Shown here in pieces: positions 38,901-48,975 of a stretch of DNA of 64,000 bases. The stretch covers positions 32,001 through 96,000 of the forward strand of contig JBEGVH010000030.1 in NCBI GenBank assembly GCA_041178425.1, given 5' to 3'. The translations under genes were made by a program, and so were the position numbers. The DNA is from Pseudomonadota bacterium. GTDB taxonomy: Bacteria > Bdellovibrionota > Bdellovibrionia > Bdellovibrionales > Bdellovibrionaceae. Numbering within the stretch: position 1 is the stretch's first letter; the number at the start of each line of letters is the position of its first letter. The notes under the pieces were generated by a model, which was not told where the DNA came from, did no database searches, and was given only the letters and a program-made list of their open reading frames with translations.

Positions 38901-39078
38901 GCTGAACCTGCGGCGCTAGGGTGGGCAGAGCTAAAGCCTCTTTCGACATCACTGGGGCCGAACTTCCCCCTGTTTTTCTCAATTTTTGGAACATGTCTCC
39001 GATGGTTTCTTCAGCATAGGCAGACAGCGAAATTCCTAAAACAGTAAAAGTAGCAATAAATATTTTTTTAGTTTTCAC
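35929..39078 (-). CDS. Large periplasmic TPR protein (GltD/AgmU-like)
   Basis: Signal peptide, ELWLRLAELY, many TPRs; GTG start. Confidence 0.85.
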   Translation of the reverse strand: MKTKKIFIATFTVLGISLSAYAEETIGDMFQKLRKTGGSSAPVMSKEALALPTLAPQVQQQRERVNFNSIKPTQSQEVINVEKYGKDRVELEKITDRQIQELFKITQKMKNSPNRGELWLRLAELYVEKADYIRARRQDEYEEKLALFNQKKISIKPTVDLGMANDYNKKSIQLYEYFIRDFKTDPKMDQALYFLGFNYIAMDDFKKGAGYYARLASEYPKSQYVGEAHFSIGEYYFDLDKFETALDSYKKVIVNKSSRLFGISLYKAAWCYHRLGQSKEGLRYLEVLIRLGAESAKKKVKIAKLDDEARRDLVVFYVEGGDANQALNYFSRILGEANAPKEVEKLAYYYSDKGEKDKGTMLFKQLIALDRSNTKAFDYQYQIVNNYLNLVNTEKFREELYTFVKQYGPKSDWRKDNRENKALMDSSYKTLENFLKTYTLQHHQSAQKSHGKVDQQKAADGYKLYLAEFQDSPNYPDMMFFYGELLYDMERYGEAAQQYAWVAKNAPQSKYGPKAAINMVLGLEKNLPTEQQMQARVGQSTTALELDPRVKQFIENGEWYLKNFQKGDKNVELRFKIGRLYYLSNHFPEAERVFREVVKLHPKSKQAEYASNLLLDMYNLRKDFVGLERVGNELLANEELSQSASAGQIRNILERASFKACEDTEAKKDYIGSAKRYEDFAKKFPKSALVLKAQFNAGVNYQRAGRIMPSVVSLEAVLRNKTKEAPPLHAKAIRLLPKMYQDLGMYQRAALAYVIAGDKNPGTKESQDYYYNAAILYDGLNDVSKAIKNYETYLKTASAVEKPDIYYRMADLSFRNKQYSKAIGYYKEYIKIGKVPDLIVESHFNTAESFSRLNSKGEATNWRTKVVQVQQSLVPRLKGPGARFAAKVKLQNIEQLYSNLTALKFPANTAKMKKVAEQKLELVNKLNQGLAEIVKYDSAEEVVGALELLGRTNAHMNSALMGAPVPPEVTKDEATRQQYMSAVGEMAKPFSSKALESYRGAIAKGRELEAYTSAYFASIEAVRAMDPNFILDIGQEAMPKTYQDWMGFK

Positions 39079-40633
39079 AGCTTTGCTTTCCAACATAGAA
39101 GTAATTTCCTATTTCATCGAGCCAGAATTCGCCTGTAAATGGCCAGTATTCATAGCCGTTTTTCACGTAGTAATTGCGGTCGTTAGAATCATCCACTCGA
39201 ACTTGATTTCTCGGAGACTCTGTCATTTTCTTTTGCAGCAGATCTTTTTGCAGACCAATCATCTCGTAGCGAAGGTAAGAGACTTGTTCATCGAGATCTC
39301 TGAGCTCTCCCTTAATGTAAAGAAGATGGATTCTCGTTTTGATTCCGATCAGCTTTTGCGCGGTTTTAATACGACCAATGAGTAGTTTTGTGGTGTACTT
39401 GCCTAGAGGAGACTCGAGGTAACCAAGGGGCATTGCTTCCATTTTCTTCTTTTCTTCGTAGAGATGTCTTAAATAGTCGAGTCCACGATCGATATCGGGC
39501 TTACCGATGATATAGCGTACAACTTTATACGGAATTCGTCCTTCGGCCATCTTACGACTGTTTTGAAGGTTCTTTTTATTGAGTAAACCTCGCTCCACTT
39601 CATCGAAATAAGCGCGAGGATCGTTTGTCGTTCTCAAGAAATCAACGATTTGCTTTTGAATACTTCCATAAGAAGTCTCAAAGAGATTCACGACTTTATT
39701 TACCTCTTCATATTTACAGATATAAAGGTAAACAATCGCTCTCAGCACCAGCGATTCAGGCACATAAAAATCATCGTAGTAACTCGAATGTAGCGATTGA
39801 AAATTGCCCAGAGCCGATCGAAAGCGCCCGTCTCTTAAGTCTGCCCACGAAGATTCAAAGAGGGCACTGTGCCAAAGGGTATGGTCACGAGGCACTTTAC
39901 GATAGAGATCTAAACTCTTTTCCCACTCTTTCTTTTGATAGTAGGTCCGGGCAAGCGCCATGAGAACCGCCACTCGAGTGTCGTTAGTGATTTTTCTTTT
40001 TTTGGCAGTGAGTAGTGCCTCAAATTTTCCAATGGCCGCATCGAGATCTCGCAACGTCGCAAAGCTTGTTCCTGCCATGTACTGAGCCATATCGGAGTAT
40101 TGGCTGTCGGGACTTACTCGATCAAAGGCCTGAATGGCTCCTTTGTAGTCTTTATTTCGAAACTTGATTTCACCCATTCGAAAGAAAAGCATGTCTTTTT
40201 CTTGGGCCGGAAAATCAGTCACTTTCATTTTTGAAATGGCATAATTCAAGATTGTTTCGTCGCCCAACTGATCGGCCGCTATCGAGAGAAGCTGCAGGCC
40301 TCGCTTAGTAAAACGATCATCATTAATGATAACCACATTAGCGAATTGCCAAGCTGCCACCTGCGGAAACTTTAAATCCATAAAGATTTTGCCGAGAGTC
40401 AGATACAACAAGGCTCGGTAGGGTTTCACCTCTGGGCGGGTGCGCATGGCAAAAAGAGCAGTTGCCGCAGGAATCATTTTTCTTTTCTCATACATGTCGA
40501 GCGCCGACTTGAGTGGCGCATAGCGAATTCCTGAGTAATTAACTTCTACATTTTGAGCGTGAACCCGAGGTGTTGCCACCAAAAAAGCAGCAGCCAACGA
40601 CCAACAGAGAACCGGTATTGATAGATTTTTCAT
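39068..40633 (-). CDS. TPR protein (GltC-like)
   Basis: ALFESSW, ALGNFQSLHS, C-terminal YEYWPFTGEFWLDEIGNY. Confidence 0.85.
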   Translation of the reverse strand: MKNLSIPVLCWSLAAAFLVATPRVHAQNVEVNYSGIRYAPLKSALDMYEKRKMIPAATALFAMRTRPEVKPYRALLYLTLGKIFMDLKFPQVAAWQFANVVIINDDRFTKRGLQLLSIAADQLGDETILNYAISKMKVTDFPAQEKDMLFFRMGEIKFRNKDYKGAIQAFDRVSPDSQYSDMAQYMAGTSFATLRDLDAAIGKFEALLTAKKRKITNDTRVAVLMALARTYYQKKEWEKSLDLYRKVPRDHTLWHSALFESSWADLRDGRFRSALGNFQSLHSSYYDDFYVPESLVLRAIVYLYICKYEEVNKVVNLFETSYGSIQKQIVDFLRTTNDPRAYFDEVERGLLNKKNLQNSRKMAEGRIPYKVVRYIIGKPDIDRGLDYLRHLYEEKKKMEAMPLGYLESPLGKYTTKLLIGRIKTAQKLIGIKTRIHLLYIKGELRDLDEQVSYLRYEMIGLQKDLLQKKMTESPRNQVRVDDSNDRNYYVKNGYEYWPFTGEFWLDEIGNYFYVGKQSCEN

Positions 40634-41460
40634 CGGTATGTTGCTCCTGGAAAGAGAATTAAGACTCCAATGCCGAGGTAAAGATCGCTGATGGTTCTTT
40701 TTTTGCCAGTATCGTTGAGCGCTCCGGTTGTGCTCACTTCAGGAACTTTTGCAGTATACTGAACATTGCTAAAGTCCCAACGCCAAGCAAGGCTCTTTGA
40801 AAGGGCAAAGATTTCTCCCGCGCCCAAGTGAACACTTGGAGCGGCTTTGTCGATATAAGAGGTTTCGGTAACCCCGCCACCCACAGAAACATAGAGATCA
40901 TAAGGAATGATTCTCTTGTCCATAAAAGTCATCTTGCCGTAAAAGGGAACAAACAATAAAGAAGCCCCCATATACCCATTACTACTGAGCATCGTTTTGG
41001 TAGTAATATTGTATTTCGAAGAGAGATCGGAAGTAACTAGTCGATCTGAAACTTTGTGGCGCCAGTAGTTTAGCTCCAAGCCAATCGTTTCGGTGAAGAA
41101 AAAATTCAGTCGCGCATTGACACCATAGGTATCAAAGAACGGATTGTTTGTTAGAAAGTTTAAGCCCCCATAAAGTTGAAAGCGATAGCTCTTTGGAAGA
41201 AACTTTTTCTGAATAATACTGATATCAGAAAAATTTGATAATTTTGGAAGCTCTTGAAAAGTGACGGGTTTGTTATCTTCGGAACGTCTCTCGGTTTCTG
41301 AAGGAGCCGTCTGATTGGCCTGTTCCTCGCCACGACGACTCATTTCTGACTCGATGGAATCAAGATCTATATCTGCCTCAGGTGCAGCCAATGCACAAAC
41401 CCCAACCAATGAGGTCATTAATACTGAACTGTTGATTAGCCGTTTCAATCCATGAAACAT
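40630..41460 (-). CDS. Outer-membrane beta-barrel protein (GltA/GltB-like)
   Basis: IQKKFLPK, NNPFF, PFYGK, amphipathic strands. Confidence 0.82.
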   Translation of the reverse strand: MFHGLKRLINSSVLMTSLVGVCALAAPEADIDLDSIESEMSRRGEEQANQTAPSETERRSEDNKPVTFQELPKLSNFSDISIIQKKFLPKSYRFQLYGGLNFLTNNPFFDTYGVNARLNFFFTETIGLELNYWRHKVSDRLVTSDLSSKYNITTKTMLSSNGYMGASLLFVPFYGKMTFMDKRIIPYDLYVSVGGGVTETSYIDKAAPSVHLGAGEIFALSKSLAWRWDFSNVQYTAKVPEVSTTGALNDTGKKRTISDLYLGIGVLILFPGATYR

Positions 41461-41532
41461 GTCACTCCCCTAACCTTCTTTTAGAACCCGGTTTCAACAC
41501 CATCAAATAGGGTACCCAAATTTTATTTACCC

Positions 41533-42273
41533 CTAAAACAAAAAGACAAGACCTCCGGTGATGTGAGTCAGCAGATAGTTTGTCGTTTCAAAATCAGAAA
41601 TTTTTAAATTGCCCGATTTTAAATCATTAATGGAATCGTTTTGAGATTTACCGCTGGGTTTATAAATCGGGTTGGGGCCAGTGAAGCGCACCATCTTTAA
41701 GTCAAATCGAAGCGCTAGATTTTTAGAAAAATAAAAGCGTTGTCCCAAACCAAAATCAAGAGCCATTTGCGATAGTCCATCGTACATGACTGTACCCAAG
41801 CCAACGAGACCATAAATATGGGTATTAACCACGAGATTTTTCAAAATGCTCAGTTTACCGTAAAAACCCGTGAACTGGTAACTCGCAAGCATATAACTCT
41901 TGGGCCCAAAAGCATTGGTTAGATCGAGCTGAACAGCATCTTTGAGGGCTTTCGCATAAACCCCTGTTCCTGAGCCCATCATGCCATAACTCACGTTGAC
42001 CCCATGAAATTCGTCAAAATGGTAAGTGCCCAGTAAGCCAAATTGCATTTGATTAAAAATGGCCTCATCAGACACTGAACCCAAAAAGCCACCCAATTCA
42101 AATTTATTTGCCACAACGACATTGCGATTTCTCACACTATTAGGAACATCAAACCGAGGGAGAACACTCTCTTTTGCCAATTCCTCTTCGGGAAAAGCCA
42201 TTGTTTGCGCCAATCCACTGATTGAACCGCTAAAGATTGCCATGAAAGTGAGGAGTCCATAAAACGATCGCAT
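41533..42273 (-). CDS. Outer-membrane beta-barrel protein (GltA/GltB-like)
   Basis: Signal peptide, FYGKLS, GLGQRFYF, terminal Phe. Confidence 0.82.
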   Translation of the reverse strand: MRSFYGLLTFMAIFSGSISGLAQTMAFPEEELAKESVLPRFDVPNSVRNRNVVVANKFELGGFLGSVSDEAIFNQMQFGLLGTYHFDEFHGVNVSYGMMGSGTGVYAKALKDAVQLDLTNAFGPKSYMLASYQFTGFYGKLSILKNLVVNTHIYGLVGLGTVMYDGLSQMALDFGLGQRFYFSKNLALRFDLKMVRFTGPNPIYKPSGKSQNDSINDLKSGNLKISDFETTNYLLTHITGGLVFLF

Positions 42274-42791
42274 TAATTCACCCCATTACTAAAATAACCA
42301 TGCTTTATAACCTGATCACAAACCTCACGAGCAGCCCCAAGGCCTCCGGGCCTCTCCGTAATGAAATCTACGATGGCCTTCACTTCAGCGACTGCTTCAG
42401 GCACGGTGGCCGAAAAACCTACTTCTTTTAAAAGTGGAATATCGTAGATATCGTCGCCTATATAAGCCATCTCGGAGGGATTTATCTGAGACTCTTTTTG
42501 TAGCTGAACAAAGGCCGGTTCTTTGTCTAAAAAGCCTTCATAGAAATAGGTTATTCCTAAGGATTTCGCTCTCGCTGCGATGTCTTTAGATTTTGAACCC
42601 GTGATGATCGCCGTTTGATAGCCGAGCTTTTGCATCTCTTTAATGCCCACACCATCTCTAATAGAGAAGAAGCGCTTCCACTCCCCATCGGAATCTAAAA
42701 AAATACGTGAATCTGTTAATACGCCATCAACATCAAAAATAAGTAATTTAATTTTGTTTAGTTTTCGAATATGTTCCATTCCGATTTTCAT
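42273..42791 (-). CDS. kdsC: KDO 8-phosphate phosphatase (HAD family); alternative start at ATG 42779
   Basis: FDVDGVLTD, RDGVGI, IITG, YIGDDIYD, GGLGAAREVC. Confidence 0.92.
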   Translation of the reverse strand: MKIGMEHIRKLNKIKLLIFDVDGVLTDSRIFLDSDGEWKRFFSIRDGVGIKEMQKLGYQTAIITGSKSKDIAARAKSLGITYFYEGFLDKEPAFVQLQKESQINPSEMAYIGDDIYDIPLLKEVGFSATVPEAVAEVKAIVDFITERPGGLGAAREVCDQVIKHGYFSNGVN

Positions 42792-43189: not shown

Positions 43190-43612
43190 ATGCTAAAGAA
43201 CATACTTTTAGGCACAGTACTTTCATTGGCTTGTTTGTCTGCATTTGCAGGAACTGATGAATTAGATCAGGACAAAGCAAATCAAACAATTCAAGGAACA
43301 GTTGTTTTGAGAGTTGATCAGCGCAATGGTGAAATGTCGATGGCGTCTGTTGACGAAGTCGTTTCTTCAGAAACTGCTGCTCAAGGTCTTATCAACGAAA
43401 AATTCACAGCAGTTCCACAAGAGAAAGTTCGTGGCGAACTTGACCGTGAAGCTGGCGCATCTAGCTGGTACTGGTACTACCCAGGCTACTCTTATGGGTA
43501 CGGTTACAACTACGGTTACTACTACTACGGTAACTGCTACAACCCTTGGTATTCTTACGGATACGGTTACTACAACTATTACTACTACAACCGCTACAGC
43601 TGGTGGTGGTAA
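43190..43612 (+). CDS. Secreted precursor-like protein with a Tyr/Trp/Gly-rich C-terminal 48-aa core
   Basis: SD AGGGGG, signal peptide ending AFA, acidic pro-region, ELDREAGASS, then WYWYYPGYSYGYGY...YSWWW. Confidence 0.85.
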   Translation: MLKNILLGTVLSLACLSAFAGTDELDQDKANQTIQGTVVLRVDQRNGEMSMASVDEVVSSETAAQGLINEKFTAVPQEKVRGELDREAGASSWYWYYPGYSYGYGYNYGYYYYGNCYNPWYSYGYGYYNYYYYNRYSWWW

Positions 43613-43733
43613 GATCTAGAGCTGATCGCCTGGCAACAGGCATCAGCAAGGTTTTGGTACTCGTTAATCACTCGGCACATCTGACAAAATCAGTGCTGCC
43701 GAGTCTAATTCTAGATCTATCTTCACTGTTTTT
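43612..43733 (+). promoter_or_regulatory. Intercistronic three-way-junction RNA followed by a U-run
   Basis: Closing stem AGATCTAGA/TCTAGATCT; hairpin GCTGAT-c-GCCTG-gcaa-CAGGC-ATCAGC; hairpin ACTCGGCA...CTGA-caaaa-TCAG...TGCCGAGT. Confidence 0.6.
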
Positions 43734-43796
43734 ATCATCTTGGCTGACATCTTTGTTTTTAATGTGGGTTCTCTAAAGCCTGAGGAGAATGAGTTT

Positions 43797-45380
43797 ATGA
43801 TGATGAAACAATTTTTTTACATGATTGTGGCTCTTTTGATCACCAGTATCACTCAGGCCATCACGATTAAAAATCTGCCCGAAATTCAAAAAGCACTTAA
43901 TGTAAAGGCTTGGCAATCAAAGCCTTTAAAAAAGAAAATCAAAGTGGCCGTTCTTGATAAAGGATTTTACGGCTACGAAAAAGAACTCGGCAAAGGAATT
44001 CCCAAAGACACTCAATATATTCCCGGCCCTGTCGAAGCTCCCAAAGATTCAAAAGTTGAACATGGCTTGGTCATGGCTCAATTAGTGACTTCGATGATGA
44101 AAACTCCCGAACTTTATCTCTATAACGTTTATGGATATTCTAACCTCAAGGCGGCGATCGAAGATTTGACTGCCAAAGATATCGACCTTGTACTCTATTC
44201 AGAAGTTTGGGAATTCGGTGGTAACCGCGACGGCAAAGGTTTTATCAATGCTCTGGTGGACAAAGCCGTCGACAAAGGCGTGACATGGATCAATGCCGCT
44301 GGCAACTTTGGACTCACTTCTTATGTTGCTAAAATTGAGTCCGACGATGACGATTGGGTTAAACTTCCTGATCAGAACCAAAGCTTAAAAATTCAATGTA
44401 ATAAAAAAGATGATGAAAAATGCCAACTCAGAGCTGTTCTGAGCTGGAACGACTTTAAAGATGACCCCGAGGTTGGCTCTGACAAAGACTTGGATTTTGC
44501 CCTTACCGATGACCTTCTCAATGTTTTGGAGTCGAGCTCTCTAAAACAAACCAGCGACAAAGAAGAGAAAAAAGCCGGTTACTCCAGCTACCCAAGAGAA
44601 ACCATCATAAAAGAGATTGGCAAGGGAACTTATTTTCTTAGGGTGAAAAACCGTTCTGGTAACTTCGACTCCGACGATGAACTCATGATCACTGTCGATG
44701 GCGATGGTCTTTCAATGCCTAGCCACTCGCGTGGAAAATCGGTTCTGAACCCTGCCGATAACTCTGGAGTCATTACCGTGGGTGCTCTCGACTCTGACCG
44801 CTCATCTTTCAATGATAAACTCAAAAAACCCGACCTCTTAGCGATGTCGTCGGTAAAAACATCTGTTGGCGAATTCCGCGGGAGCTCCAATTCAGCAGCC
44901 CTCGTGGCCGGTGCTATTGGCCTTGTTAAATCAAGAGCTCCTCAAAAAGATTTCGAAGGCATCATCGAAGAGGCCAAACTCAATGGCTGGGCTGATCACA
45001 AGCGTGGCCTTCCCATTAATTGGCTTGGATTTAATTCTCCTCGTGGAAACTGTTTTGTAGCAGACAAAATAAAAGAAGAACTCCCATCGCAAATTAATGA
45101 CGTTATTAATGTTGGGGGAATCTTTGTGCAAACAACGGCTGGTAGCCGTTTAATGACGCCTTATGATCCGATTCACCTCGACGAATCAATTCAGAGAATT
45201 CAGCCTAATGATTTTATACTGACGACCCCCGAAGGTTATAAACTAGCCGAGCGTTATTCGCCCTATATACCGAACGGTTGGGTCGAGGTTTTTCAAACCC
45301 CCCAAGGAATGAGCCTGTGTGATTTACCCATGCAACCTCTAGGAAAAATCTTTCGACTCAAGTCACCCACTAAAGACTAA
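43797..45380 (+). CDS. Secreted S8 (subtilisin-family) serine peptidase
   Basis: Signal peptide; VAVLDKG (Asp), EHG (His), INAAGN (oxyanion Asn), ITVGA, KPDLLA, FRGSSNSAALVAG (Ser); SD GAGGAG. Confidence 0.88.
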   Translation: MMMKQFFYMIVALLITSITQAITIKNLPEIQKALNVKAWQSKPLKKKIKVAVLDKGFYGYEKELGKGIPKDTQYIPGPVEAPKDSKVEHGLVMAQLVTSMMKTPELYLYNVYGYSNLKAAIEDLTAKDIDLVLYSEVWEFGGNRDGKGFINALVDKAVDKGVTWINAAGNFGLTSYVAKIESDDDDWVKLPDQNQSLKIQCNKKDDEKCQLRAVLSWNDFKDDPEVGSDKDLDFALTDDLLNVLESSSLKQTSDKEEKKAGYSSYPRETIIKEIGKGTYFLRVKNRSGNFDSDDELMITVDGDGLSMPSHSRGKSVLNPADNSGVITVGALDSDRSSFNDKLKKPDLLAMSSVKTSVGEFRGSSNSAALVAGAIGLVKSRAPQKDFEGIIEEAKLNGWADHKRGLPINWLGFNSPRGNCFVADKIKEELPSQINDVINVGGIFVQTTAGSRLMTPYDPIHLDESIQRIQPNDFILTTPEGYKLAERYSPYIPNGWVEVFQTPQGMSLCDLPMQPLGKIFRLKSPTKD

Positions 45381-45384
45381 ACGC

Positions 45385-45416
45385 AAAAAGGCGTTCCCCT
45401 AGAGAACGCCTTTTTT
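45385..45416. terminator. Bidirectional intrinsic terminator between the S8 gene and kdsD
   Basis: AAAAAGGCGTTC-loop-GAACGCCTTTTTT. Confidence 0.9.
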
Positions 45417-45473: not shown

Positions 45474-46448
45474 TTATCTGACTTTATTTTTTAGCAAATC
45501 CTGAAGATGAATGAGTCCTACGGGCTGCCGAGGATTTCCTGATTGGGCATCAACAACAAAGAGCATCTGAATACGAAACTCTTCCATAATGAACAATGCT
45601 TTTTCGGCCATTTCTTCTGCATCAATCGTTTTTGGATTGAGGGTCATGATATCCCTGGCAACACCCTCAAGTGGATTTTGAGATCTTTCTAGCCGCCGAC
45701 GTAAATCACCATCAGTAATAACACCCACGAGCTCTGCGCTCTCATTAGTGACACCTGCGGTTCCGCGGACCTCTTTGGCTGTCATCACTGACACCACCTG
45801 AAGCATTGGAGTCTCTAACTTAACCACTGGCAAAGAATCTCCAGCGTGCATCACATCGCGAACTCTTAAAAGCTTTCGCCCGAGAGATCCACCAGGATGG
45901 TATTCAGCAAAGTCTTCAGACTTGAAACCACGCTTTAACAGCACCGCCATGGCCAAGGCATCACTCATTGCTAAGGCTGCCGTGGTGCTGGCTGTCGGCG
46001 CTAGATTTAATGGACAGGCCTCTGTGCTAATCGAACAATCGAGAATGATTTGTGAAGATCGGCCCAACCGACTCTCATGAGAACCGGTAAAGGCAATCAC
46101 CTTGAGGCCTTTTCTAGCTGCATAATTTAATATGGCATTGAGTTCGTCTGCTTCACCACGATAACTGAAAACAACTATCACATCATCCGAACTAACAAGA
46201 CCTAGATCGCCGTGACTGCTCTCAGCAGGGTGGAGAAACACGGAGGGAGTTCCCGTGCTAGAAAAAGTGCTCGCTAGTTTGCGAGCGATAATTCCGCTCT
46301 TTCCGATGCCAGTGGTAACGACTTTACCCTGACAGCCAAAAATGACCTCGACGGCTTCTAAAAATTTATCATCAATACGAGGCCCAAGGGCAGCCACGGC
46401 CTGAGCTTCGATCGCCAAGACCTTTCTGGCTTCTTCTTTTAAATTCAT
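45474..46448 (-). CDS. kdsD: Arabinose-5-phosphate isomerase (KpsF/GutQ family, SIS plus CBS domains)
   Basis: TGIGKSG, STGTP, HGDLG, LAPTASTT, HPGGSLG, ITDGDLRR; alternative start at 46460. Confidence 0.93.
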   Translation of the reverse strand: MNLKEEARKVLAIEAQAVAALGPRIDDKFLEAVEVIFGCQGKVVTTGIGKSGIIARKLASTFSSTGTPSVFLHPAESSHGDLGLVSSDDVIVVFSYRGEADELNAILNYAARKGLKVIAFTGSHESRLGRSSQIILDCSISTEACPLNLAPTASTTAALAMSDALAMAVLLKRGFKSEDFAEYHPGGSLGRKLLRVRDVMHAGDSLPVVKLETPMLQVVSVMTAKEVRGTAGVTNESAELVGVITDGDLRRRLERSQNPLEGVARDIMTLNPKTIDAEEMAEKALFIMEEFRIQMLFVVDAQSGNPRQPVGLIHLQDLLKNKVR

Positions 46449-46449
46449 C

Positions 46450-48246
<1,797 letters not shown>

Positions 48247-48975
48247 TTAACCTCTCAGAAATGGTTCCACCTTCAAAACATCTTCGGGTGTGTCCACGCC
48301 AATACAATTATAATTTACTTTAATGGTTTGGATCTTAGCGCCTAACCAAAGAGCACGCAATTGTTCTAAGCTCTCTGCTCGCTCTAAAAGTGCTGGTGCC
48401 GTCTCGCAAAAAAGTTTCAGAAAGCTTTTTTTGTAGACATAAAGCCCAAGATGTTGCCAACAAGCTTCAATTTTGCTCTCAGGAGCCATGCGCGTGTAGG
48501 GTATGGGAAGTCGACTAAAATAAAGGGCCTCATCTTTACGATTGACCACTGCCTTGACAATATTGGGGTTGGTAAGATCTTCCATTGCCAGAGGCTTCAC
48601 TAGAGTGGCCATCTCAGCGTCTGATTTCCAAAACCCATTCACCAAATCATCGATAATTTCCCCTTTTAAAAGGGGCTCATCACCCTGAATATTAACAACA
48701 GCTTCGCCGTCTACATTTTGACTAGCCGCCCAAACGCGATCCGACCCAGAAGGCAAATCGGGGGATGTCATTACAACATCGACGCCTAATTTTTTTGCCA
48801 AGGCCGCGATCCCTTCGTGATCGGTGGCCACAACTAAGTCTGTCAGTGTTTTTGCTTGCTTTGCCCCTCGGATAACCCACTCGAGAAGAGGGCGCCCTGC
48901 GATAGTATGAAGAGGTTTTCCTGGAAAGCGCGTAGACGCAAACCGAGCAGGAATGACGCCAATAACCTTTTTCAT
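48247..48975 (-). CDS. kdsB: CMP-KDO synthetase
   Basis: IPARFASTRFPGKPL, SGSDR, VNIQGDEP, LYFSR, ESLEQLRAL, GVDTPED. Confidence 0.97.
   Translation of the reverse strand: MKKVIGVIPARFASTRFPGKPLHTIAGRPLLEWVIRGAKQAKTLTDLVVATDHEGIAALAKKLGVDVVMTSPDLPSGSDRVWAASQNVDGEAVVNIQGDEPLLKGEIIDDLVNGFWKSDAEMATLVKPLAMEDLTNPNIVKAVVNRKDEALYFSRLPIPYTRMAPESKIEACWQHLGLYVYKKSFLKLFCETAPALLERAESLEQLRALWLGAKIQTIKVNYNCIGVDTPEDVLKVEPFLRG

Follow-up and report, generated by a model that had tools for sequence, protein, structure and literature searches.

The 64,000-nucleotide stretch of DNA analysed here (the window) carries on its forward strand a gene for a small, tyrosine-rich secreted protein, followed by a gene for a secreted subtilase of peptidase family S8 (Table 1). 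An earlier sequence-only reading had described the first product as a 140-residue protein of three parts, namely a signal peptide, an acidic pro-region and a 48-residue core. The translation agrees with this description, with the signal peptide judged by its pattern. The gene has a ribosome-binding site (AGGGGG) 6 nt upstream of the start and ends with the stop codon at 43610-43612. Residues 21-92 contain 14 D/E versus 7 K/R and terminate in ELDREAGASS, which together with W93 makes up a segment that we call the hinge. The tail (residues 93-140) consists of 23 Y, 7 G, 6 W, 5 N, 3 S, 2 P, 1 C and 1 R, with no D or E, a recount that reproduces the earlier figures for Tyr, Trp, Cys, Arg and acidic residues. 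The internal duplication of P-x-YSYGYGY that had been noticed is also present, as PGYSYGYGY and PWYSYGYGY, and the tail holds in addition a conserved YGYYNYYYY block.

The tail is genuine coding sequence. Its tyrosines are encoded by TAC in 20 of 23 cases, compared to 42% TAC in 1,362 long open reading frames (ORFs) of the genome (binomial p ~1e-5), and all five asparagine codons are AAC, compared to 39% in the long ORFs. Because of this codon bias, and because hundreds of homologues exist with position-specific conservation, the small protein is real and not a chance reading frame. ORFs of 101, 62 and 76 residues that overlap the tail region in other frames or on the other strand (43314-43649) are by-products of the TAC-rich repeat and not genes. 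Among 5,379 ORFs scanned in the window's own genome, the precursor gene was the only one with such a hinge and tail. Two lipoprotein-like ORFs of the same genome, outside the window, have Gly/Tyr/Asn-rich tails and no ELD hinge (140 and 219 residues, from about position 10082 of C9 and about position 175646 of C10, both on the + strand); they represent another type of secreted protein of low complexity.

Searches point to a large family of such proteins. A profile search of 1.84 billion cluster representatives gave 393 matches at E <=0.001, 237 at <=1e-10 and 33 at <=1e-30, and the best 150 of the 393 representatives were 129-244 residues long. A word-indexed search identified 56 homologues, all annotated as 'hypothetical', in records of Bdellovibrionales and Pseudobdellovibrionaceae. 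No Pfam or NCBIfam model matched the small protein. When 42 family members were compared with Pfam at E-values up to 1, no family was matched by more than one member, and I9, the family of subtilisin propeptides, was not among the matches. Judged by these sequence comparisons, the family is real and unnamed.

No other stretch of the small protein is as conserved as the hinge. We surveyed 194 family proteins (the 56 homologues plus newly listed cluster representatives) and found the motif E-L-D-x7-W, its D and W always seven residues apart, in 164 of them, so the junction at which the sequence-only reading had placed the cut is conserved at fixed spacing. Within these 164 members, E is present in 163, L in 154, D in 164 and W in 158. 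An ELD-like motif also occurs inside the first 45 residues in 132 of the 164. In the window protein this first motif lies just past the predicted signal cleavage site, and in the alignment of the family (A1) its residues E24, L25 and D26 are conserved at 90% or more, with A20 almost invariant. A general role of ELD after a signal peptide as a sorting motif was rejected for this genome, as the precursor alone fits (1 of 5,379 ORFs).

The tails of the 164 hinge-bearing members have a median length of 48 residues (range 39-132) and contain 41.7% Tyr, 11.9% Gly, 9.5% Asn and 8.4% Trp; D, E, K, L, I and M are nearly absent. The tail is not mere low complexity, because alignment A1 has invariant positions (W93, Y117, Y123, Y128 and Y130) in it, and P119 and the YGYYNYYYY block are almost invariant. 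Exactly one Cys is found in 108 of the 164 tails, and the C-terminal residue is aromatic in 134 (W in 88, Y in 34 and F in 12), with R in a further 23. Pro-regions across the family contain 0.6% Tyr and neither Trp nor Cys. Some genomes have additional precursor copies without an S8 gene of their own, and the ELD hinge is kept in two of the three such copies examined.

The second gene of the pair matches PF00082 (E 2.9e-11, 43.7 bits versus a cutoff of 21.8), which, together with the hairpin at 45385-45415, bears out the earlier description of a secreted S8 peptidase gene and a terminator that closes the pair. The likely start is the ATG at 43797 and not the TTG at 43740 of the ORF list, because a database protein of 527 residues is 99% identical; this ATG has AGGAG upstream, and the 527-residue product has its own signal peptide. 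D54, H89, N170, S364 and four cysteines are invariant in an alignment of 43 S8 sequences (A2). With the triad order, the oxyanion Asn and the subtilisin fold all present, the protein is a member of peptidase family S8.

The AlphaFold2 (AF2) model of the protease has a predicted local distance difference test score (pLDDT) of 89.5 and a predicted template modelling score (pTM) of 0.89. Mature subtilisin BPN' (residues 1-275) superimposes on model residues 20-525 with Z 27 and a root-mean-square deviation of 2.6 over 239 residues. In a profile search of PDB sequences, S8 residues 44-181 align with subtilisin 24-160 and residues 319-402 with subtilisin 162-252, and the insert between the two segments has beta strands at 196-301 in the model. 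Residues 20-25 of the model align with residues 1-3 of mature subtilisin, and Asp54 follows the predicted signal cleavage site by only about 33 residues. The S8 enzyme begins where mature subtilisin begins, and according to the model it is therefore without the usual I9 propeptide, the N-terminal element that classical secreted subtilisins have. It belongs neither to the mycosins (TIGR03921, 24 bits versus a cutoff of 278.75) nor to the QhpE proteins (NF049966, 15.4 versus 165). The closest solved folds found with Foldseek were clostridial Csp subtilases, at E-values of 5e-11 to 1e-9, TM scores of about 0.4 and 11-14% identity.

The two genes stay together across genomes. We used the S8 alignment to scan one genome per species and obtained 80 S8 loci. 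A hidden Markov model of the small-protein family found a member directly upstream and on the same strand in 70 of them. Among the 10 misses, five loci were short of upstream sequence and three had divergent analogues (L116, L124 and L126); no upstream family member or analogue was seen in the remaining two (L110 and L118). In 201 genomes across the phylum, the small protein was present in 38 and the S8 protein in 61, and all 38 genomes with the small protein also had the S8. In 35 of these 38 the two genes are on one contig within 3 kb, and in two of the other three the S8 gene is at a contig edge. The homologues are thus linked to the protease gene, as the sequence-only reading had expected.

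Other searches gave a similar picture. Among 61 relatives, the small protein was matched in 16 at E <=2.4e-9 and in 23 at E <=1, and the S8 in 25. A tblastn search of 21 loci with the precursor matched all of them, two weakly and in a chance-like manner (L002 and L020); the S8 gene was within the 1.5-kb flanks in 15, and the four remaining real matches were one at a contig end and three extra copies. Divergent members missed by the protein search were found upstream of the S8 gene in three further genomes. Adjacent genes in divergent or convergent orientation occur in one family of the phylum.

Clustering of all flanking ORFs in the 80 loci did not identify a third conserved gene, and no modification enzyme, transporter, immunity or export gene recurred. 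This extends to the whole set the earlier observation that no modifying enzyme or transporter gene is adjacent in the window. The next commonest neighbour was a TrmO/TsaA-like gene (25 of 80 loci, on the other strand). This gene and a 2OG-Fe(II) oxygenase gene, both neighbours of the pair in Bdellovibrio, were considered as modifying enzymes and rejected, since they occur in 23-25 of the 80 loci, on the other strand and in one lineage only.

Some individual loci deserve mention. In the family with divergent or convergent genes (L128:1841-2401 and L131:248-517), the Tyr-rich gene is on the other strand, and a small Cys-containing ORF ending in WQW or WIW, conserved between the two genomes, is found directly before the S8 gene. 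In L117 (2858-4222, contig G113:C3), a second and more canonical S8 gene directly follows the Tyr-rich gene; its product has 455 residues (PF00082 E 9e-28) with a catalytic domain from about residue 174, and the S8 gene of the propeptide-less clade lies 2 kb further along. The divergent analogues upstream of related S8 genes are in two high-GC records, L126:4148-4717 (labelled Planctomycetales) and L124:269-865 (labelled Alcaligenaceae), and in L116:1755-2594 (labelled uncultured proteobacterium). Their hinges are of the ELD type in L126 and L116 and read MDRESPTQAC in L124, and their tails are Gly/aromatic-rich (for example, with GYGGLGYGG repeats) rather than Tyr-dominated.

The AF2 model of the small protein, made from 42 aligned sequences, has pLDDT 75 and pTM 0.66. 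Confidence is higher in the pro-domain (85-93 for residues 31-80) and in the beta strands of the tail (79-91 for residues 111-140) than in the hinge (63-66) and in the region made up of the hinge and the start of the tail (54-66 for residues 81-110), so that the hinge appears as a lower-confidence loop between two better-modelled parts. The model suggests one compact body in which the pro-domain and the tail strands lie together. At the level of the model, a linear motif that is conserved and placed in a poorly ordered loop between ordered parts looks like a recognition or cleavage site, and likewise like the reactive loop of an inhibitor. A Foldseek search of PDB with the precursor model gave no match at E <=0.001, and in a wide VIA fold search of 48,161 chains, in which the alignments cover residues 35-140, the best Z was only 3.6. 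The ESM Atlas contained no match at 0.9 or above (the single-sequence model is poor, pTM 0.41), and the PDB sequence search had no match below E 1.2.

The 184-nt spacer between the genes is predicted to fold with a minimum free energy (MFE) of -61.1 kcal/mol (z -3.12), and none of 200 shuffled sequences folded as well. Among the 43 related loci whose spacer is 40 nt or longer, 33 also gave a z below -2, with mononucleotide shuffles, a lenient control. The structured spacer could lower read-through into the protease gene. In a strain of Bdellovibrio bacteriovorus (L055:4790-4990), the spacer has a 25-bp perfect inverted repeat (-106 kcal/mol, z -6.6), which is maybe an inserted repeat element instead of a regulatory hairpin. 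The pair sits on the opposite strand inside a set of genes for the lipopolysaccharide (LPS) core and 3-deoxy-D-manno-octulosonate (KDO) (39068-42791 and 45474-48975), and upstream there are genes for signal-peptide proteins of 246 and 276 residues without a Pfam family and for a tetratricopeptide repeat protein. A functional link to the kds genes was rejected, as kdsC or kdsD flanks the pair in only 4 of the 80 loci, all from close relatives of the window.

Table 1. Features of the locus, with positions in the window
Feature	Position	Strand	Basis
Small secreted precursor gene, 140 aa	43190..43612	+	ORF translation, homologue family, TAC/AAC codon bias
Signal peptide, residues 1-20, predicted cleavage between AFA and G	43190..43249	+	Sequence pattern
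First E-L-D motif, residues 24-26	43259..43267	+	Conservation in A1
Acidic pro-domain, residues 21-82, predicted beta-beta-alpha-beta	43250..43435	+	AF2 model
Hinge E83-L-D-R-E-A-G-A-S-S-W93, proposed recognition/cleavage site	43436..43468	+	Family conservation; lower-confidence model stretch
Tyr/Trp-rich tail, residues 93-140	43466..43609	+	Composition, conservation in A1, AF2 beta strands
Structured intergenic RNA, 184 nt, two hairpins enclosed by AGAUCUAGA/UCUAGAUCU, no T-run	43613..43796	+	MFE
Secreted S8 subtilase gene, 527 aa, predicted to have no propeptide	43797..45380	+	PF00082, invariant triad, subtilisin alignment
Catalytic Asp54 codon	43956..43958	+	Invariant in A2; aligned with subtilisin Asp region
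Catalytic His89 codon	44061..44063	+	Invariant in A2; aligned with subtilisin
Beta-rich insert of about 135 residues (182-318) in the subtilase fold	44340..44750	+	Gap in subtilisin alignment; model strands
Catalytic Ser364 codon, in G-S-S-N-S-A-A	44886..44888	+	Invariant in A2; aligned with subtilisin GTSMA region
Intrinsic-terminator-like hairpin with T-run, closes the pair	45385..45415	+	12-pair stem, 5 G-C pairs
kdsC-like haloacid dehalogenase-type (HAD) phosphatase	42273-42791	Opposite to pair	
kdsD-like SIS+CBS isomerase	45474-46460	Opposite to pair	
CTP synthase-like ORF	46450-48243	Opposite to pair	Named by eye from translation
kdsB-like ORF	48247-48975	Opposite to pair	Named by eye from translation

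By profile match, size and synteny, Bd0450 and Bd0449 of B. bacteriovorus are the orthologues of the small protein and the S8 protease. Genome G189 has a 132-residue family member with the hinge ELDQDGGASSW, a 525-residue S8 and a TrmO/TsaA-like gene at the coordinates listed for Bd0450, Bd0449 and Bd0451 (PMC3627812 supplement 2). Bd0450 is annotated as 'hypothetical protein' and Bd0449 as 'putative protease'. The B. bacteriovorus S8 is about 48-50% identical to the window S8, and its flanking genes differ from those of the window and include no kds genes. Bd2269, a subtilase published as 'prey-lytic', was rejected as the orthologue, because coordinates and synteny indicate Bd0449.

Published data on the B. 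bacteriovorus pair place it in growth. In reads per kilobase per million (RPKM), Bd0449 rises from 0.77 in attack phase to 66.1 in the 3-h growth phase and Bd0450 from 0.76 to 197.9; small-gene mRNA is thus about three times that of the protease gene. Both genes carry the flag 'GP specific', which is common to many housekeeping genes in the same table (PMC3627812). On microarrays taken 30 min after prey entry, the two genes are unchanged (0.92-0.98 fold for Bd0449 and 1.24-1.31 fold for Bd0450), and Bd0449 is up 2.0-2.8 fold in host-independent growth (t-test 0.003; PMC2797640). In the proteome, Bd0449 is represented by 20 unique peptides and assigned to the 'Peak3h' cluster, with values of 5.94 in attack phase, 6.80 at the 3-h peak and 4.24 at 7 h (PMC12546842). 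Bd0450 is absent from the tables of that study that were searched, although its mRNA exceeds that of Bd0449, and this absence fits, weakly, a processed or insoluble protein. Bd0449 (57.2 kDa) is also among the proteases detected by mass spectrometry in the supernatant of host-independent cultures (PMC3898049 Table 2).

On the strength of these transcript, proteome and supernatant data, the pair is expressed and the protease leaves the cell or is released from it, with a timing of late growth rather than attack. The prey-attachment role considered in the sequence-only reading is a poor fit, given the lack of induction 30 min after prey entry, the growth-phase transcripts and the protease peak at 3 h in these sources. 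Neither gene is listed under these names in the transposon-sequencing supplements of PMC6561027, where other locus tags were possibly used. In two soil RNA libraries, contigs cover both genes of a B. bacteriovorus locus at >=99% identity, contigs being no proof of transcription. The contigs of four sequencing runs all break in or near the spacer, at most a weak hint.

The layout had been compared previously with LanP- and PatA/G-type peptide maturation. This comparison stands as an analogy and not as kinship, since the precursor is Sec-exported and there is no conserved modification enzyme. As in LanP/NisP systems, an S8 protease is encoded beside a small precursor, from which in those systems it removes an N-terminal leader and frees a C-terminal peptide. 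The present pair differs: its precursor is made with a Sec-type signal, neither a modification enzyme nor a transporter is conserved beside it, the 'core' varies from 39 to 132 residues with 42% Tyr, and the S8 is without a propeptide. Systems for ribosomally synthesised and post-translationally modified peptides with LanP or PatA/G proteases are marked by a modification enzyme encoded with the precursor and by a Sec-less leader with a dedicated transporter, and neither feature was found here. The Csp subtilases (CspB, CspC and CspA), the best Foldseek matches, also have a large insert in the catalytic domain (182-318 in the window S8). CspB is a specific processing enzyme that keeps its own prodomain; the window S8 has no prodomain, and similarity is low (TM about 0.4, 11-14% identity) with a different substrate. 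Bacillus Phr proteins are Sec-exported pre-pro-peptides whose C-terminal part is freed outside the cell by the S8 proteases subtilisin, Epr and Vpr. Phr products are pentapeptides without a Tyr-rich tail, and they are paired with Rap genes and not with a protease gene. Functional amyloid families (curli CsgA, Fap and TasA) were not matched by any of the 42 members at E up to 1.

The nearest functional parallel that we found is GAM56 of Eimeria, a Tyr-rich precursor cut by serine proteases into Tyr-rich peptides that become part of the resistant oocyst wall. According to one study, inhibitors of serine proteases block the processing of GAM56 to these wall peptides, and S8 genes, those of gametocyte subtilisins, show raised expression at that stage (PMC3770453). 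This is a functional analogy only, as the organism is eukaryotic and the genes for protease and precursor are not paired. Dityrosine cross-linking enzymes belong to the Eimeria wall system; unlike there, no such enzyme is linked to the bacterial pair.

A dedicated protease-substrate pair fits the evidence best. Our best reading, tentative and at somewhat less than an even chance, is that the protease triggers release of a self-assembling Tyr-rich peptide from the small protein. In its favour are the gene linkage, the fixed spacing of the hinge, the invariant catalytic residues in a fold closest to Csp-type processing subtilases, the extra precursor copies, and the expression and location of the B. 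bacteriovorus proteins; the structured spacer and the higher small-gene mRNA are hints on stoichiometry. The two genes would form a self-contained module in which the secreted, propeptide-less S8 cuts the small protein inside the E-L-D-x7-W hinge, with the bond between S92 and W93 as one guess for the exact position. The cut would separate the 48-residue Tyr/Trp-rich tail from the acidic carrier domain, whose predicted role is to hold the tail in solution. The freed tail would then associate with itself, because its tyrosines alternate with small residues on the opposite face and it has no charge, and may assemble into a beta-rich or cross-linked extracytoplasmic material. Assembly would be timed to late growth and progeny formation, not to prey entry. 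A more specific proposal, possible but doubtful, is that predatory bacteria build a new kind of extracellular material: the released peptide, 40-130 residues long and about 42% tyrosine, would polymerise inside the prey while progeny form, by cross-beta structure or by cross-linked tyrosines, and so provide a coat or seal, as a bacterial counterpart to the coccidian oocyst-wall pathway.

Several points weigh against release of the tail. Cleavage at the hinge is a proposal and no cleavage product was seen; self-assembly is suggested by the composition of the tail. A conserved exposed loop beside a protease gene could just as well be the reactive-site loop of an inhibitor. The AF2 model puts the tail strands and the pro-domain in one compact body (pTM 0.66), and the protein could work intact. 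Serine at P1 would not be typical of a subtilisin, the second ELD motif, which lies where the mature protein starts, fits none of the readings offered here, and the absence of Bd0450 from the proteome may reflect few tryptic peptides.

In the main rival reading, the small protein acts as a separate inhibitor or folding chaperone of the S8 and replaces the missing propeptide. We consider it unlikely, and serious because the S8 has no propeptide: the enzyme starts at the start of mature subtilisin, with the usual I9 part missing. In the inhibitor version, the ELD...SSW hinge would occupy the active-site cleft in a substrate-like manner and silence the periplasmic S8 until export. The strict gene pairing agrees with such a role, as do the size of the pro-region (72 residues, close to the 77 of a subtilisin propeptide, according to the title of entry 1spb), the model of one compact body with an exposed conserved loop, and the higher level of small-gene mRNA, which would suit a stoichiometric inhibitor. 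However, neither I9 nor any other inhibitor family was found by Pfam in the 42 members, and the fold search gave a best Z of 3.6. Weak counter-evidence comes from the tail (42% Tyr, 39-132 residues), from the extra copies of the small protein away from any S8 gene, and from the absence of Bd0450 in proteome tables where Bd0449 has 20 peptides. We know of no inhibitor scaffold with such a Tyr-rich tail of variable length.

The tail could also be cleaved off and act not as a structural material but as a bioactive agent, membrane-active or directed against outer-membrane assembly of the prey. The organisms are predators of Gram-negative bacteria, the arrangement of pre-pro-peptide and protease resembles the maturation of antimicrobial peptides, and strict Y-x-Y alternation suits amphipathic beta strands. 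The C-termini of outer-membrane proteins end in an aromatic residue, as do 134 of the 164 tails. What makes this reading quite improbable is that the orthologues are not induced at prey entry (0.9-1.3 fold) and that Bd0449 is up 2.0-2.8 fold in prey-free host-independent growth, as far as the published tables go; moreover, the tail is nearly without cationic or aliphatic residues, 23 of 164 members end in Arg, and no immunity or export gene is conserved in the 80 loci. More improbable still is an uncut small protein that serves as an adaptor, with a sticky tail that anchors the protein and the bound S8 to a surface such as the predator envelope or the prey wall. With its abundance of Tyr, Gly, Asn and Trp, the composition recalls that of adhesive proteins, the gene pairing is conserved, and the insert and extra C-terminal parts of the S8 could bind a partner. 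But Bd0449 is free in the culture supernatant, at least in the table cited above, and a mere tether needs no invariant hinge of fixed spacing. Finally, since neighbours in an operon need not be partners and related genomes have gene order in common, the two genes might be adjacent by descent only, with unrelated functions. We regard this as nearly negligible, because the linkage outlasts changes of the flanks (the kds context is found in 4 of 80 loci) and of orientation, and because 38 of 38 genomes with the small protein carry the S8.

The logic of a Sec-exported pro-protein with an S8 enzyme is already known. We found no description of the product class, the hinge motif or the propeptide-less, Csp-like protease clade in the literature searched. 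No paper in the full-text literature combined 'Bdellovibrio' with 'tyrosine-rich', and none relevant was returned for tyrosine-rich, subtilisin-like and precursor peptide. In article full text, Bd0449 was found in one paper only, as a table entry, and Bd0450 not at all, and no functional study of either was found.

Much of the secreted machinery of Bdellovibrio, which is under study as a living antibiotic, is uncharacterised. The pair is present in a fifth to a third of the sampled genomes of the phylum (38 and 61 of 201), the model strain expresses it, and its small size permits direct testing. If the tail is released and assembles, it would represent a new protease-triggered bacterial material or peptide class, and few natural sequences for which the maturation enzyme is defined would be as rich in tyrosine. 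If the small protein is instead an inhibitor or chaperone acting in trans, it would show how a subtilase dispenses with its propeptide. Whether the small protein is substrate or inhibitor, either outcome would be new biology for the S8 family.

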